This document shows positions 471 through 56,345 of a stretch of DNA of 64,000 nt, in pieces; the stretch's first letter is position 1, and each line of letters opens with the position of its first letter. This DNA comes from Patescibacteria group bacterium (lineage in GTDB: Bacteria > Patescibacteriota > Patescibacteriia > Patescibacteriales > UBA12465). The stretch lies in contig JBAZNJ010000005.1 in the NCBI GenBank assembly GCA_041649315.1, forward strand, positions 709 through 64,708, read 5' to 3'. Under the pieces are notes generated by a model that was given only the letters and a program-made list of their open reading frames with translations, had not been told where the DNA came from and searched no databases. The translations under genes were made by a program, and so were the position numbers.

Positions 471-608
471 ATTTTCCCACGCTTTTATTTTTAAATAAAA
501 TAAAAAACGTGTCGTATTCCGGACTACAGCCGAGAATAAATTCTCGATCCGAAATACCCTTTCTTATATTTTTACTCTGTGTTTATTGATGTCTTTACTC
601 TAACATGA

Positions 609-618
609 TTGTTAAGGG
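609..618 (-). promoter_or_regulatory. boxA-like element in the 23S leader (tentative)
   Basis: Minus-strand CCCTTAACAA matches 8/9 of the CTTTAACAA core of rrn boxA. It lies between the upstream promoter and the 23S 5' end. Confidence 0.3.
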
Positions 619-633
619 ACTTTTCATAGGGTG

Positions 634-657
634 CAAAAAAACCGCTTTGAGCGGTTC
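634..657 (-). terminator. Intrinsic-terminator-like hairpin upstream of 23S
   Basis: Minus strand reads AACCGC-TCAAA-GCGGTT followed by T7. There is no T-run in the plus orientation. Confidence 0.55.
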
Positions 658-765
658 TAAGTAATCGCAAAATAGCTGATTATCTAGAATCGCTTTTTAA
701 CATGGTTTCTTAACTCTTTTCTCATATTATTTTGGCTTCTTATAGCCCTATTAAAACTGATAGTA

Positions 766-793
766 ATTATAGCGTTTTTAAAAATTATGTCAA
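766..793 (-). promoter_or_regulatory. Sigma70-type promoter facing the 23S gene
   Basis: Minus strand reads TTGACA (793-788), a 16-nt spacer, then TATAAT (771-766). Confidence 0.6.
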
Positions 794-892
794 GGGGGAT
801 AAGATGTGTAAAAAATACCAAATATTTGAGTTATAATTTATAAATTTATTAATAATAATTTAACTAATTTAAAAGTAAATTTTAAAATACTA

Positions 893-921
893 TTGACAAA
901 TTGTTTATTGTATGATATAAT
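893..921 (+). promoter_or_regulatory. Consensus sigma70 promoter for ORF 963..1241
   Basis: TTGACA (893-898), a 17-nt spacer, then TATAAT (916-921). It is divergent from the promoter at 766-793. Confidence 0.7.
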
Positions 922-962
922 GTATTTAGTAAAAATTAGTTTCTTAACAAAAATATATAATC

Positions 963-1241
963 ATGAAAAAAATTAAAAGAATTTTAGGAAAAATAAAAAA
1001 AATATGGGCATTTATTATCACCGAACCATATACTGCCGCTATGTTTTTCTCTGCCTTACCAGCACTTTTGGCAACTATATTATTTTACTTTTTATACTTT
1101 CAAAAAGTAAATTCTAATCTAGAAACATTAGACTACATAGGAGAATCTGTAGCACAAACATTTTTCATTTTCTTTGTTGTTTGGTTCATTTGCTTCCTAT
1201 ATACGGGAGCTTTATTCGAAAAATTTAAAAAAAAATCTTAA
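963..1241 (+). CDS. Small membrane protein (92 aa, 2 predicted TM helices), unknown function
   Basis: ORF preceded by a consensus promoter and followed by a terminator. Contains hydrophobic segments (AAMFFSALPALLATILFYFLYF and FFIFFVVWFICFLYTGALF). No family recognised. Confidence 0.6.
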   Translation: MKKIKRILGKIKKIWAFIITEPYTAAMFFSALPALLATILFYFLYFQKVNSNLETLDYIGESVAQTFFIFFVVWFICFLYTGALFEKFKKKS

Positions 1242-1249
1242 CAATCAAC

Positions 1250-1285
1250 AAAAAAAAGTTTACCGCGCGGTAAACTTTTTTTATT
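1250..1285. terminator. Bidirectional intrinsic terminator
   Basis: GTTTACCG/CGGTAAAC palindrome (1258-1275) flanked by an A-run and a T-run. It sits between the convergent ORF 963..1241 (+) and pilT (-). Confidence 0.7.
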
Positions 1286-1303
1286 TTACGAATACTAATA
1301 GTT

Positions 1304-2359
1304 TTAACCATCCAACATCCTCGCATCATCCATATTTCTCTCGGCGACTTCCTGGCTGATTTCTCCGGCCGAATATAATTCTTTAATATGCTTATCCATA
1401 GTAACCATGCCGAAGCTGGCCCCGGTTTCGATTACACTCTTAATTTGCGCTATTTTCCCTTCCCGGATTAAATTAGCTACGGCCGAATTATTAATCAAAA
1501 TCTCGCGCGCCGCGACCCGACCGCCCTTAACCCGCGGCAAAAGGCGCTGGGAAATAACCGCCGTTAGAACGCCGGATAACTGGGATTTAATTTGCCCTTG
1601 CTGATGCGGCGGGAAAATATCAATAATCCGATCAATGGTCTGGGCGGCGTTATAGGTATGGAGCGTAGCGAAAACTAAATGACCGGTTTCCGCCAAGGTA
1701 ACGGCGGCGGCAATCGTTTCTAAATCGCGCATCTCGCCGAGCATAATCACGTTCGGATCCTGACGCAAAGCATGTTTTAAGCCGGCCGCAAAACTATTCA
1801 TATCTGTACCTAACTCCCTCTGGACAATCAAGCTCTTGTCGGAAGAAAAAACATATTCAATCGGATCTTCAAGCGTAATGATATTGGCGGCTTGATTCTT
1901 ATTGATATAATTTATCATCGCCGCTAAGGTCGTTGACTTTCCGCAACCGGTCGGGCCGGTTACTAAAATAAAACCCTGAGGCAAATCTAATAATCGCGTA
2001 ACAACTGGTGGCATGCCGATTTCTTCCAGAGTCGGTTTACGATTATCAACCACCCGAGCGACAATCGCAATGTTCCCTTTTTCATAAGAAAGATTGATCC
2101 GATAGCGATAGCCGTTTACCTGGTAACCCATATCTAAATCGCGCTCGGAAATAAAACGCGTTTTTTGCTCTTTAGATAATAAAGTATTGGCAAACTTTTC
2201 TAAATCAGCGGCACTAAGCGGCGAAGCAGCTTCGGGCGCAAAACGAGCGGTCGCAATTAACTCACCGTCAATCCGTAAAACCGGCGGCTGGCCGAAAACT
2301 AGATGGAGGTCGGAGGCCTTTTCTTCAGCGGCTAATTTTAAGAGAAAATTTATATCCAT
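1304..2359 (-). CDS. pilT: Type IV pilus retraction ATPase PilT (twitching motility protein)
   Basis: 351 aa. Walker A GPTGCGKSTT, followed by ITLEDPIEY and MLGEMRD...TLHT motifs typical of the PilT/PilU secretion ATPase family. Size fits PilT. Confidence 0.9.
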   Translation of the reverse strand: MDINFLLKLAAEEKASDLHLVFGQPPVLRIDGELIATARFAPEAASPLSAADLEKFANTLLSKEQKTRFISERDLDMGYQVNGYRYRINLSYEKGNIAIVARVVDNRKPTLEEIGMPPVVTRLLDLPQGFILVTGPTGCGKSTTLAAMINYINKNQAANIITLEDPIEYVFSSDKSLIVQRELGTDMNSFAAGLKHALRQDPNVIMLGEMRDLETIAAAVTLAETGHLVFATLHTYNAAQTIDRIIDIFPPHQQGQIKSQLSGVLTAVISQRLLPRVKGGRVAAREILINNSAVANLIREGKIAQIKSVIETGASFGMVTMDKHIKELYSAGEISQEVAERNMDDARMLDG

Positions 2360-3988: not shown

Positions 3989-5815
3989 CTAATTCTTCGG
4001 CTTCGGCCCGACGATTTCCTCAAAAGCTTCTTTCTCTATCGTTTCTTTTTCTAATAGAACCGCGACAATCTTTTCCAATTCCGCCTTATTCTTGCTAATA
4101 ATCTCCGCCGCCTTAGCTTCTCCCTGGCGGATAAAGCCGGAAATTTCTTCATCAATCCTCTCGGCAATCTTTTCGCTATAATCGCGCTGTTCATGGATTT
4201 CCCGACCCAAAAAAATCATTTCTTCTTTTTCGCCGTAAGTGCGCGGGCCAAGATTATCGCTCATGCCGAAGTCCGTCACTAAACTTCGCGCCAAAGCCGT
4301 CGCCCGCCGCAAATCCGAAGTCGCGCCAGTTGTTACTTCCCCAAAAATCGTCTTTTCTACGAGATGGCCGGCTAAAAGAACCGCGATTTCGGAAATAAAT
4401 TCGGATTTAGAATGCATGTGGCGATCTTCGGAGGGAACTTTTAGAGTATAGCCGCCAGCCGAACCGCGAGCAATGATTGAAACTTTATGAACCGGATCGG
4501 TCCCCGGCAAAAAATGAGCGACCAAGGCATGGCCGGCTTCATGATAGGCGGTAATCTTTTTCTCTTTATCAGTAATCACCCGGCTCTTCCGTTCCGGTCC
4601 GATCATAACTTTTTCAATCGCCTCAAATAAATCTTCATTCAAAATTTCTTTCCGATTAGCCCGAGCCGCCAAGATTGCGGCCTCATTCAAGATATTGGCC
4701 AAATCCGCGCCGGAAAATCCGGCGGTCCGTTCTGCAATTTTTTTAAGCTCAACGGTTTTAGCCAAAGGTTTTTTATAAGCATGGACATTTAAAATTTCTT
4801 CCCGATCTTTTAGGTCAGGCAAGTCAATCGTCACCCGCCGATCAAAACGTCCCGGCCGAAGCAGAGCGGGGTCTAAAACATCCGGACGATTAGTCGCGGC
4901 GATAACAATAATATTCTGCGTCGGTTCAAAGCCGTCCATTTCAACCAAAATTTGATTTAAAGTCTGTTCCCGCTCGTCATGACTGCCGCCTAAACCGGCG
5001 CCACGCCGTCGACCAACCGCGTCAATTTCATCGATAAAGACAATACAGGGCGCGCTTTTCTTTGCTTTCTCAAATAAAGACCGGACGCGCGAAGCCCCGA
5101 CTCCGACAAACATTTCTACGAATTCCGAACCGGACATATGAAAAAACGGCACCTGCGCTTCTCCGGCCACAGAACGAGCGAGCAAAGTTTTCCCAGTACC
5201 GGGCGCGCCTAAAAGCAGGACACCGCGCGGAATCTTTGCGCCAAGCTCATGAAATTTTTTCGGGAAACGAAGAAACTCCACAATTTCTTTTAGCTCCTCT
5301 TTCGCCTCTTTTACCCCGGCAACATCTTTAAAAGTCGTTCGTTTTTTTTCATCCGGCTTAAAATCTTTAGCCGTGGACTGGCCGAAGCTCATCGCCCGAG
5401 AATTCGCGCCTTGGAGCCCACGCATCAAGAAAAAAATAAAAAATCCGATAATCAAAAACGGCACCGCGAAAGGAATAATATTAACCAGCCAATAATTCCA
5501 ACCGCCTTCTTCCTTAACCGAAATCTTAATTCCGGTCATTTTTTCCGGCGCTACTTGGAAATTGCTTAAAAGCGTTGATAAAGATTCTCCTGATTCTTTC
5601 TTAACTTTTTCCTGGCCGCCGTCTTTTAAAGAAACTGATAATTCATTGCCGCTAATAATAATTTCTTCAACCTCAGCGGCTTCAATCCGAGCGATCAAAG
5701 TTTCTATACCGACCGTTTCGCTTTTTGGCGATTGGTTCGCAAAAGCGCTAAAAACAAGGGCGATTACAAAGAAAATAATCAGAAAAAAAGAAAAATTCCT
5801 AATAAGTTTTTTCAT
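3989..5815 (-). CDS. ftsH: ATP-dependent zinc metalloprotease FtsH
   Basis: Walker A GAPGTGKT, Walker [12 protein letters not shown] region, and the HEAGHA zinc motif. Start is set at the ATG at 5815 (MKKLIRNF...) because a TTGCCA-17-TATAAT promoter lies inside the longer ORF-track extension. Confidence 0.95.
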
Positions 5816-52347: not shown

Positions 52348-52382
52348 CAGACAGACAGACAAACAAACAAACAAACAAACAA
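52348..52382. repeat. Compound tetranucleotide microsatellite (CAGA)3(CAAA)5CAA
   Basis: Read directly: CAGACAGACAGA (52348-52359), then CAAACAAACAAACAAACAAACAA (52360-52382). It lies in the yidD-yidC spacer. Confidence 0.9.
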
Positions 52383-52422
52383 TTTAGTAATTAAGCAAAG
52401 TTTAATAATTCAAAGAAATTTT

Positions 52423-55775: not shown

Positions 55776-55827
55776 AAAAAGACCCGACATTCGTCAGATC
55801 TTTTTAATTAGTGGGTCCGACAGGATT
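55776..55827. repeat. Direct repeat copy 1: orphan tRNA-Val 3' fragment (16 nt) + terminator
   Basis: 52/52 nt identical to 55989-56040 (AAAAAGACCCGACATTCGTCAGATCTTTTTAATTAGTGGGTCCGACAGGATT). It lacks the rest of the tRNA. Confidence 0.95.
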
Positions 55828-55988
55828 TCCGCCTCGCGGCGCTTAGCCGCGCCGCTCGTTGTCGCGGCGGACCCGATAAACGCTCCCCTTGGTCGCGTTT
55901 ATCGTCGCTCATTCTCTCGTCCTCTCTCCGTTCGGACTCGAGTTTCGCTCGCCGCCTGTTCTCATCCTGTCGTTGCGAGCCGTTAATT
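55828..55988. other. 161-bp GC-rich (~62% by hand count) structured insert between the direct repeats
   Basis: Perfect hairpins at 55836-55855 (GCGGCGC/GCGCCGC) and 55874-55904 (CGATAAACGC-N11-GCGTTTATCG). A 9-bp inverted repeat, 55818-55826 versus 55964-55972, pairs the tRNA fragment with the far end of the insert. Confidence 0.8.
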
Positions 55989-56024
55989 AAAAAGACCCGA
56001 CATTCGTCAGATCTTTTTAATTAG

Positions 56025-56040
<16 letters not shown>
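55989..56040. repeat. Direct repeat copy 2 (3' end of intact tRNA-Val + terminator)
   Basis: Identical to 55776-55827. Minus-sense AGAUCUGAC-GAAU-GUCGGGUCU plus U5 forms the tRNA terminator. Confidence 0.95.
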
Positions 56041-56098
<58 letters not shown>

Positions 56099-56125
56099 AT
56101 AATTTTTAATCTTTAATTTTTAGGG

Positions 56126-56199
56126 TGGGCATAGATGGACTTGAACCATCGACCCCCGCTTTATAAGAGCGGTGCTCTAACCACCTGAGCTATATGCCC
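56126..56199 (-). tRNA. tRNA-Ile (TAT anticodon)
   Basis: Acceptor GGGCATA/TATGCCC, D arm GCTC-AGGTGGTTA-GAGC, anticodon arm CCGCT-CTTATAA-AGCGG, T arm GATGG-TTCAAGT-CCATC. The body resembles bacterial tRNA-Ile. Confidence 0.9.
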
Positions 56200-56345
56200 A
56201 ATTATAATAATTAGCTTAAAAGATTGCAAGAAATTCGGATACTAAATTATTATATCGGTTGTCGGGGAGCCGAAAAACCACACTCAATAGAGCATTTAAT
56301 ATAATCCTGATAAAGCTGGCACGACAAGGCAATTATTTTATACCA

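Follow-up and report, generated by a model that had tools for sequence, protein, structure and literature searches.

The DNA analyzed here is a 64-kb stretch of a Patescibacteria group bacterium genome (contig JBAZNJ010000005.1; "the window" below means this whole stretch), and the subject is a short segment that follows its tRNA-Val gene. Read on the minus strand between 56230 and 55700, the locus consists of a promoter-like site, the genes for tRNA-Ile(UAU) and tRNA-Val(GAC), a long palindrome made up of A-run, hairpin and T-run, a spacer (16 nt), GC-rich DNA, the tRNA-Val 3′ end and palindrome once more, and then the promoter and gene of an Hsp20 protein. The tRNA-Val gene (56024/56025–56098) is called by ARAGORN and scores 74.1 bits in Rfam. 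Positions 55776–55827 and 55989–56040 form a 52-nt direct repeat with 100% identity whose starts lie 213 nt apart; each copy runs from A58 in the T loop through the discriminator base and then through a 35/36-nt A-run/hairpin/T-run trailer, and only the right-hand (here called proximal) copy is joined to a whole tRNA. This pair is the sole exact direct repeat of at least 20 nt in the 64 kb, barring an (ACAA)n microsatellite upstream of yidC (52355–52385, plus strand). The locus is one copy of an undescribed and apparently rare family of gene-less, GC-rich, folded elements of about 213 bp in Falkowbacteria-like Patescibacteria (candidate phyla radiation, CPR).

Indirect evidence suggests that the repeat is present in the reads: the same architecture is present in independent assemblies (see below), and a Logan contig from SRR8542065 begins with exactly the last 30 nt of the repeat, the k−1 overlap expected at a branch of a k=31 graph and so consistent with a true repeat. 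The insert between the two copies (55828–55988) is 62.1% GC against 41.5% for the window, of which it is the GC-richest 161-nt stretch (99.96th percentile), and 66% pyrimidine on the plus strand, a skew equalled in only 2.3% of windows. It contains two perfect hairpins (GCGGCGC/GCGCCGC at 55836–55855 and CGATAAACGC/GCGTTTATCG at 55874–55904), and one strand of an exact 9-bp inverted repeat lies in the orphan tRNA end (ATCCTGTCG, 55818–55826) and the other at the far side of the insert (CGACAGGAT, 55964–55972). The repeat, the GC-rich and pyrimidine-rich insert, the hairpins and the inverted repeat had been picked out by the initial annotation, made from the letters alone, and each was borne out, as was its remark that no integrase is present in the window: a Pfam scan of 45 open reading frames (ORFs) describes a housekeeping region that includes dnaA, dnaN, rnpA, yidC, the genes for valyl- and phenylalanyl-tRNA synthetases (ValRS, PheRS), ftsH and nusA, and no integrase, transposase, recombinase or reverse transcriptase domain. 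Its comparison of the repeat with the attL and attR ends of integrated elements also fits the repeat geometry.

Copies at other tRNA genes

An exact 26-mer from the 3′ part of the insert matched four JGI contigs in one metagenome scan (L087, L088, L089 and L090). Their GC-rich segments, here called modules, are 86–90% identical to that of the window over about 145 nt (79–90% over the stretches matched by BLAST), and by BLAST their flanks are unrelated to the window, save for tRNA-like sequence in L088. In L087 and L090 tRNA-Ser(GCU) is followed by 51 nt that include a hairpin, by the module, and then by AATCCCTTCCTCTCCGC, which is the 3′ end of that same tRNA. In L088 the order is tRNA-Ala(UGC), 52 nt with a hairpin, the module, and AATCCCTTGGGGTCCA(CTAAC). 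A second, divergent module lies 50 nt further along L087 (L087b) and ends in the 3′ end of another tRNA-Ser, and L089 carries two tandem modules (L089a and b) 51 nt apart, with no upstream tRNA on the contig. Directly upstream of these tandem modules is an IS3-family pair (550–1618, plus strand; a helix-turn-helix OrfA and a 262-aa OrfB, identified by eye), which probably separates them from their tRNA. Thus far the window and the four contigs supply seven modules, of which the five of the main type are 86–99% identical to one another and the two divergent ones 42–54% identical to the rest. An eighth, also divergent, follows tRNA-Val in L021, a Patescibacteria genome in GTDB, and was missed by a covariance model built on the other seven; it has a perfect 10-bp closing helix (P1, see below), a tail cut down to a 9-nt helix strand and a period of 221 nt, and a 136-aa membrane-protein ORF lies between it and hsp20. 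In every copy the tail, that is, the segment just past the module, is a tRNA 3′ end starting at A58, and in L087, L088 and L090 it matches the upstream tRNA.

The geometry of these copies is fixed. The core-to-core period is 213 nt at the Val, Ala and Ser sites, where the core is the segment from A58 to the tRNA 3′ end; the 5′ strand of P1 begins 51–52 nt past the tRNA (in the window at +51 from the ARAGORN tRNA end, equal to L088), and the tail copy begins at +197. The identity block always starts at A58 and is 52, 21 or 17 nt long, while the sum of repeat and insert stays at 213 nt, so these are not target-site duplications of a fixed-length insert, and that model is ruled out. The constant sum would fit a circular 213-nt unit with an attP/attB identity block of variable length. 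In the direction of the tRNA the unit comprises the core (∼17 nt), the hairpin/terminator (∼35 nt), the spacer (∼16 nt) and the GC-rich folded body (∼145 nt). Immediately left of A58 the tRNA reads TTCG and the module CGGA. Among the explanations first offered for the locus was the scar or minimal remnant of an integrative element; the same body, A58 junction and 213-nt period are found at three tRNAs and in tandem arrays, which independent deletions would not yield, and a random scar is thus unsupported.

The search for extra copies that the initial annotation proposed succeeded in related DNA (the four contigs and L021) and failed within the window, where BLAST, nhmmer and the covariance model find no other. 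In 644 kb of Falkowbacteria DNA nhmmer and the covariance model return only the seven modules; exact-match scans of IMG/VR viral contigs with three patterns, including a generic end-to-end one, gave nothing, phage and plasmid records gave no match, and full-text searches of the literature found no description of such elements. The family looks rare in these scans, which for DNA demanded exact matches.

The modules do not appear to encode protein. The 34-codon Arg-rich ORF reported earlier does exist but is judged spurious, since neither its start codon nor its frame is conserved: the ATG is ACG in L087a, L090, L088 and L089a, indels break the frame and the stops differ. Protein searches for mis-called ORFs, both word-indexed and by full HMMER, returned only the other-strand ORF of L087 itself and one chance match.

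Fold of the module and its match to the tRNA

The alignment of seven modules yields a consensus fold in which the closing helix P1 joins the start of the body to the start of the tail, P2 encloses P3 and P4, and a conserved joint leads to hairpin P5 (positions in Table 1). The conserved single-stranded joints include GAGAACA, (G)GACAA and GCGGAA, and the joint after the P1 5′ strand (J1/2), GAGAACAGG, is conserved as well. Over the 38 pairs 91.3% of cells are standard-paired, against 32–46% when the partners are slid by 1–3 columns; 14 pairs show compensatory changes on both sides, and none of 500 column shuffles reaches the observed values. This covariation, in seven related sequences, is good support for a fold of a single strand, although it falls short of proof. 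The fold energy is lower on the minus (tRNA-sense) strand, with z between −6.3 and −6.6, than on the plus strand (z = −4.1). Wobble pairs give no grounds for taking the tRNA-sense strand as the folded one, because the counts (six G·U cells and seven A·C cells) are uninformative.

The helix P1 tracks the identity of the tRNA. Its variants include GGGAT/ATCCC, CAGGAT/ATCCTG at Val and GGACT/AGTCC in L021, and the full 5′ and tail strands are CGACAGGAT and ATCCTGTCG in the window (Val), CCAAGGGAT and ATCCCTTGG in L088 (Ala), and TGACAGGACT and AGTCCTGTCA in L021, whose tRNA has a T loop that ends in GU. The reverse complement of the P1 5′ strand resembles the T loop and the 3′ half of the T stem, and the bases past this strand are also T-loop-like when read on the opposite strand (GTTCGAATCCC in L087b and GTTCTCATCC in the main type); the L021 counterpart, TTCGAGTCCTGTC, is a 13-nt exact match to its own tRNA. 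Inverted copies of the T arm's 3′ half thus stand on either side of the body.

The module resembles no RNA family that was looked for. Rfam 15, which had been suggested as a check and whose families include tmRNA, YrlA, HEARO/omega-RNA, group II introns and ribozymes, finds in the insert, under an E-value threshold, only a chance-level overlap with tmRNA_permuted (16 bits, where the gathering score is 47; E = 1.9), and the modules of L021 and L088–L090 have no Rfam match. Hammerhead, hepatitis delta virus-like, group II domain V and RNase P-like motifs did not fit by eye and had no Rfam match either. A tRNA-like cloverleaf in the last 63 nt (GGGTCCG/CGGACCC, with a CGCGG-CTAAGCG-CCGCG look-alike of an anticodon arm) was ruled out: GGGTCCGCC is kept in the copies with Ser and Ala tails, where it is unpairable, and neither ARAGORN nor Rfam calls a tRNA there.

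Table 1. Positions of the features at the tRNA-Val locus of the window and of the L021 module
Feature	Sequence	Position	Strand	Remarks
Promoter-like site	TTGCAA-17-TATAAT	56229–56201	−	Upstream of tRNA-Ile
tRNA-Ile(UAU)		56123..56200	−	First gene of the tRNA pair; ARAGORN, Rfam
tRNA-Val(GAC), intact		56024..56098	−	Last 17 nt (56024–56040) are the start of the proximal repeat copy
Proximal repeat copy		55989..56040	−	A58 to discriminator+1, then long palindromic hairpin (55989–56023)
Spacer, 16 nt	AATTAACGGCTCGCAA	55973..55988	−	Between proximal hairpin and module
P1 5′ strand	CGACAGGAT	55964..55972	−	Complementary to tail start; begins 52 nt past discriminator
Module, GC-rich body		55828..55963	−	Seven-module alignment, consensus fold
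P2		55952–55956 with 55867–55870	−	
P3		55934–55948 with 55907–55922	−	
P4 hairpin		55874–55904	−	
P5 hairpin		55835–55855	−	
34-codon Arg-rich ORF		55808..55912	−	Judged spurious
Orphan tail	AATCCTGTCGGACCCAC	55811..55827	−	tRNA-Val copy, A58 to discriminator+1; 55818–55826 is the P1 3′ strand
Distal hairpin with T-run		55776..55810	−	Functional-looking terminator; followed by native sequence and Hsp20 promoter-like site (55766–55738)
L021 module		4434–4589	+	Divergent eighth copy, after tRNA-Val

Related genomes and the chromosomal side

The DHH phosphoesterase encoded beside the locus has hundreds of homologues in Candidatus Falkowbacteria and Patescibacteria. The relatives with flanks read here share the order ValRS, DHH, tRNA-Ile(UAU), tRNA-Val(GAC), Hsp20, VanW and YidC, and in nearly all other relatives DHH is followed by the tRNA pair. 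The anticodon of the tRNA-Ile directly upstream of tRNA-Val(GAC) is UAU, not the usual CAU with lysidine, in the window and at nearly all Falkowbacteria loci checked. Not one of 86 syntenic loci matches the insert by BLAST or carries a second tRNA 3′ end, and the element is absent from about 80 relatives, which are distant (DHH identity 48–78%); most of them have tRNA-Val, a single A-run/hairpin/T-run terminator and then the TTTACA promoter of hsp20.

The closest relative is L002 (GCA_964573035.1), whose DHH protein is 92% identical to that of the window. There tRNA-Val is followed by a homologous but diverged hairpin, by GTTTATGAATCGCAACGACA, by AT-rich sequence like that after the terminator of the relative L016, and by the hsp20 promoter. 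Its TCGCAACGACA is in register with the end of the window's spacer and the first five bases of the closing helix (TCGCAA and CGACA of P1). This 11-nt in-register match is the remnant on which we base the view, not proven, that L002 is a deletion derivative in which an ancestral element would have lost about 190 nt, comprising the body and, on the distal side, both the tRNA end and the hairpin.

Several comparisons bear on which parts of the locus are native. The hairpin after the tail in L088 is a bidirectional terminator shared with the convergent ddl gene, and it is recognizably orthologous to that of L093 (Ddl 76% identical), which has tRNA-Ala and no module; the window's distal copy leads on into the hsp20 promoter, which is native. 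The distal side is thus chromosomal, which is what integration in the T loop predicts, and the distal hairpin of the window is homologous to the native tRNA-Val terminator of L016. The proximal hairpin of the window is followed by AATTAACG with no T-run, which makes it a weak terminator, and only the distal copy passes a terminator rule. The proximal hairpins of the Ser and Ala sites are alike, score 13–19 against those of the window and L002 and have a median of 6–7 against 21 native trailers, one of which reaches 14; these scores are only suggestive that the proximal hairpin is carried by the element. The window hairpin itself is closest to the native tRNA-Val terminator of L016, a weak hint that the element's hairpin may once have been taken from a tRNA-Val locus.

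Three of the metagenome contigs carry signs of recombination at the core. L087 and L090 have the tRNA, hairpin, spacer, module and tail in common (98.6% identity) and diverge at the first base past the tail. In L089a the P1 5′ strand, GGAAGGGAT, complements the Ser(GCU) core exactly, and the tail comes from a different tRNA-Ser.

Other observations were made at tRNA genes in this DNA. Contigs L003, L010, L020, L027, L041, L087/L091 and L092 end inside tRNA-Ile, tRNA-Val or tRNA-Ser or within a few bases of them, which points to repeats or strain variants at these genes as a common cause of broken assemblies. AT-rich insertions of 0.5–0.9 kb that are unrelated to the module lie between tRNA-Ile and tRNA-Val in three relatives (L010:4289–4855, L037:4342–5222 and L061:4297–4781), and a GC-rich perfect hairpin without similarity to the module, GGGCGGCACGCAGTGCCGCCC, follows tRNA-Val in AT-rich DNA in L019 (4345–4400, plus strand). 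Upstream of tRNA-Ser(GCU) in L090 (770–880, plus strand), a 23-nt sequence, AAAATTTTTTGGAGAGGT[A/G]GCTG, stands on both sides of a folded, GC-rich insert some 75 nt long; the repeat is the end of the promoter plus the first 13 nt of the tRNA, a 5′-side mirror of the 3′-side module, and at the end of the insert is GGCAGGGAAT, similar to a P1 5′ strand that would suit the L089b tail. Downstream of ddl, where L088 and L093 carry tRNA-Ala, L096 (2430–2525, minus strand) and L097 (1690–1775, minus strand) have an unannotated RNA of 85–94 nt, after a TTGACA-17-TATAAT promoter-like match (by eye) and before two terminator-like hairpins. An acceptor-like stem of 8 bp and a perfect T arm (AGAGG TTCGAAT CCTCT) have non-tRNA arms between them, and the RNA has no ARAGORN call and no Rfam match at E ≤ 0.01.

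Proposed mobility, rival readings and known systems

Tentatively, we favor reading the unit as a miniature integrative element that is not autonomous; it would recombine in the T loop, restoring the tRNA, and would act as a single folded strand. The observations behind it are the family and its fixed geometry, the fold, the covariation of P1 with tRNA identity, the absence of the element from relatives and the remnant in L002; from these we infer the recombination mechanism, the single-stranded DNA substrate and the enzyme acting in trans. Site-specific recombination would take place between T-loop positions 57 and 58 of a tRNA gene; the core and hairpin brought by the element would complete and terminate the tRNA gene, and the displaced chromosomal 3′ end would stay behind as the orphan tail past the body. 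Blocks of identity from the T loop to the tRNA 3′ end belong to the standard classes of tyrosine-integrase att site. No unit or contig region examined carries a recombinase, so the enzyme would have to be supplied in trans. The body would fold as a single strand, its first 9 nt pairing in P1 with the beginning of the core or tail, and P1 and the inverted T-loop-like bases would rebuild a duplex copy of the T arm, a folded attachment site that would function as integron attC or the CTX-phage attP hairpin does. Excision would give a circle in which GAGGCGGA is joined to AATCC and continues through the hairpin and spacer, and it would leave tRNA-Val and its hairpin joined to TTATTCTC. A non-autonomous miniature element mobilized in trans was among the possibilities first listed for the locus, and it is the one best supported by the Val, Ser and Ala sites, the absence from about 80 syntenic relatives, the partial deletion in the closest one and the single swapped tail; no linked recombinase and no excision product were seen.

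A number of points weigh against this reading. There is no recombinase in or near any copy or in the 64-kb window, the sole nearby mobile gene being the unrelated IS3 of L089, and neither an excised circle nor a precise empty site in a close relative was seen. The known copies number eight, from one metagenome set and two genomes. The mismatch left of A58 (CGGA in the element, TTCG in the tRNA) means that any crossover lies to the right of A58, and a circle of 213 bp is very small for a double-stranded attP. The two hairpins in the window are identical although the orthologous hairpin of L002 has diverged at roughly one third of its positions; a recombinase acting on the core only does not explain this, and gene conversion, concerted evolution or a recent re-insertion is needed. 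One break in homology between L087 and L089 lies just past a hairpin T-run and better fits a unit composed of spacer, body, tail and hairpin. Finally, a move to a new tRNA would need changes in the core and in the P1 5′ strand alike, for which the model gives no route. A route is built into the rather unlikely proposal of a programmable mobile RNA or single-stranded DNA, whose tail, P1 strand and inverted T-loop would be copied from the target tRNA or its transcript at each move.

The modules could instead be a family of structured small RNA genes that do not move, a less probable reading and the main rival. Read-through transcription from the tRNA operon would cover the body and tail and stop at the distal terminator, with the tail and P1 forming a T-arm-like end for processing or stability, and copies would have spread by ordinary duplication and recombination; alternatively, the 5′ end would be antisense to the T arm of the cognate tRNA and masked in cis by the tail. 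A structured RNA with a tRNA-like 3′ end had been suggested from the start, and the covarying fold with its conserved unpaired joints sustains that part of the suggestion. The stronger fold energy of the minus strand also favors an RNA, the contrast between a proximal hairpin without T-run and a good distal terminator makes read-through plausible, in L087b and L021 the reverse complement of the module 5′ end agrees with the T loop and T stem over 11–13 nt, and the L021 tail keeps only its P1 part. Set against these, no promoter of its own is predicted for the module, Rfam has no match, and the wobble counts show no strand preference and do not separate RNA from single-stranded DNA. Moreover, absence from about 80 related genomes and decay in the closest one mark the module as dispensable, and ordinary duplication does not account for one body having gained, at three tRNAs, the tails and P1 strands that suit them, with the 213-nt period unchanged. 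The RNA-gene and integrative-element readings are compatible in that an RNA gene could span the att core.

Other explanations are less probable still. A retro origin, which we consider improbable, would have a reverse transcriptase begin at the tRNA primary transcript's 3′ end (the terminator U-run), copy as far as A58, where structure or a modified base would halt it, and switch template to the module RNA, the cDNA being inserted beside the terminator. A58 is the classical stop for retroviral reverse transcriptases copying primer tRNA, and the boundary of the repeat coincides with it; the limits of the window repeat are exactly A58 and the last base of the terminator T-run, the 3′ end of the primary transcript, and one break in homology (L087/L089) lies just past a hairpin T-run. 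Yet no tail carries CCA, the sequence past the tail at the Ser and Ala sites bears no relation to the trailer of the tRNA itself and in L088 belongs to the native chromosome, and no reverse transcriptase is present in the window or the other contigs examined. Similarly improbable is an orphan guide RNA comparable to the omega-RNA of TnpB or IscB, the IS110 bridge RNA or the homing guide of a CRISPR-associated transposon, with the body as scaffold and the 17-nt tail as guide. A conserved scaffold is indeed followed by a variable 3′ segment of 16–17 nt that is identical to nearby DNA, at a fixed distance between target and insertion, and the length and 3′ position of this segment resemble those of TnpB right-end RNAs; half of the supposed guide is locked in P1, though, all eight tails are tRNA ends where IS200/IS605 guides match arbitrary flanking DNA, no TnpB, IscB, DEDD or Cas gene lies near any copy, and there is no omega-RNA or HEARO match in Rfam. 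A neutral local duplication, a random prophage scar or an assembly artifact might be suspected from a perfect repeat with a single copy in the window and no associated genes, and is very improbable given seven further copies in independent assemblies with the same architecture and covarying fold, and a Logan graph break consistent with a true repeat.

In its working principle the element is closest to the tRNA-targeting integrative elements, and it is a member of no family tested. With prophages, integrative and conjugative elements, integrative and mobilizable elements and the integrase-less cis-mobilizable elements, where these depend on tyrosine integrases that target the T loop and 3′ end of tRNA genes, it shares a tRNA 3′ repeat from the T loop, a tRNA restored on the proximal side (repeat and intact tRNA at one end are present at Val, Ser and Ala), a distal copy that runs into native DNA, tandem accretion and variation in presence. 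It differs in its unit of about 213 bp, gene-less and 20 to 500 times smaller, in having no known integrase, in the GC-rich covarying fold closed by an inverted copy of the core, and in the presence of one body family at three or more tRNA species. No conserved ORF lies within it, and no Phage_integrase, rve or recombinase domain was found in the 45 window ORFs or in L087; it has att-like repeats and lacks recombination genes, and to count as a cis-mobilizable element it would also have to be mobilized in trans by a related integrase. The integron attC sites and the CTX-phage attP(+) used by XerCD are also defined by structure over sequence, with an inverted-repeat stem that recreates a duplex site, short units, possible tandem arrays and an enzyme acting in trans, but the likeness is in working principle only, as the target here is the T arm of a tRNA rather than attI or dif. 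No attC R″/R′ (RYYYAAC/GTTRRRY) or dif-like boxes were noticed when the module alignment was read by eye (no pattern search was run), and Pfam finds no integron integrase in the window.

The size of the element (150–220 bp), its lack of genes, terminal inverted repeats of 9–10 bp, strong secondary structure and intergenic position beside terminators also recall miniature inverted-repeat transposable elements, the palindrome-associated elements of IS200/IS605, and repetitive extragenic palindromes (REP) and the mosaic elements (BIME) made of them. Here, in contrast, the inverted repeats derive from the target tRNA and vary by copy, no transposase family is linked and there is one copy in 64 kb; nor is there a short fixed target-site duplication, as the sequences flanking P1 (TCGCAA and GACCCA) are not duplicated and the tRNA repeat varies (17, 21 and 52 nt). 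The likeness to TnpB right-end RNA lies in a scaffold of about 130–150 nt with, on its 3′ side, some 16 nt that match the adjoining target DNA exactly, and it is set against the absence of a nuclease gene, of a TnpA or TnpB near any copy and of an Rfam match, and against a guide-like segment that is partly paired and always a tRNA end.

Whichever reading applies, modules of this kind break metagenome assemblies at tRNA genes and are liable to be annotated as ORFs by mistake. As RNA genes they would form a new class of structured RNA linked to tRNA 3′ ends. If they are mobile, they would be about the smallest integrative elements described, consisting of a folded site, a spare tRNA end and a terminator without any gene, and they would show one scaffold re-addressed to different tRNA genes, which bears on how att-site specificity evolves and on the recombination machinery of reduced CPR genomes, and may bear on compact retargetable insertion sites. 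Were the programmable, tRNA-matched reading true, CPR bacteria would have a new class of mobile element, templated and directed by tRNA, in which a protein-free scaffold could be re-addressed to any tRNA gene.

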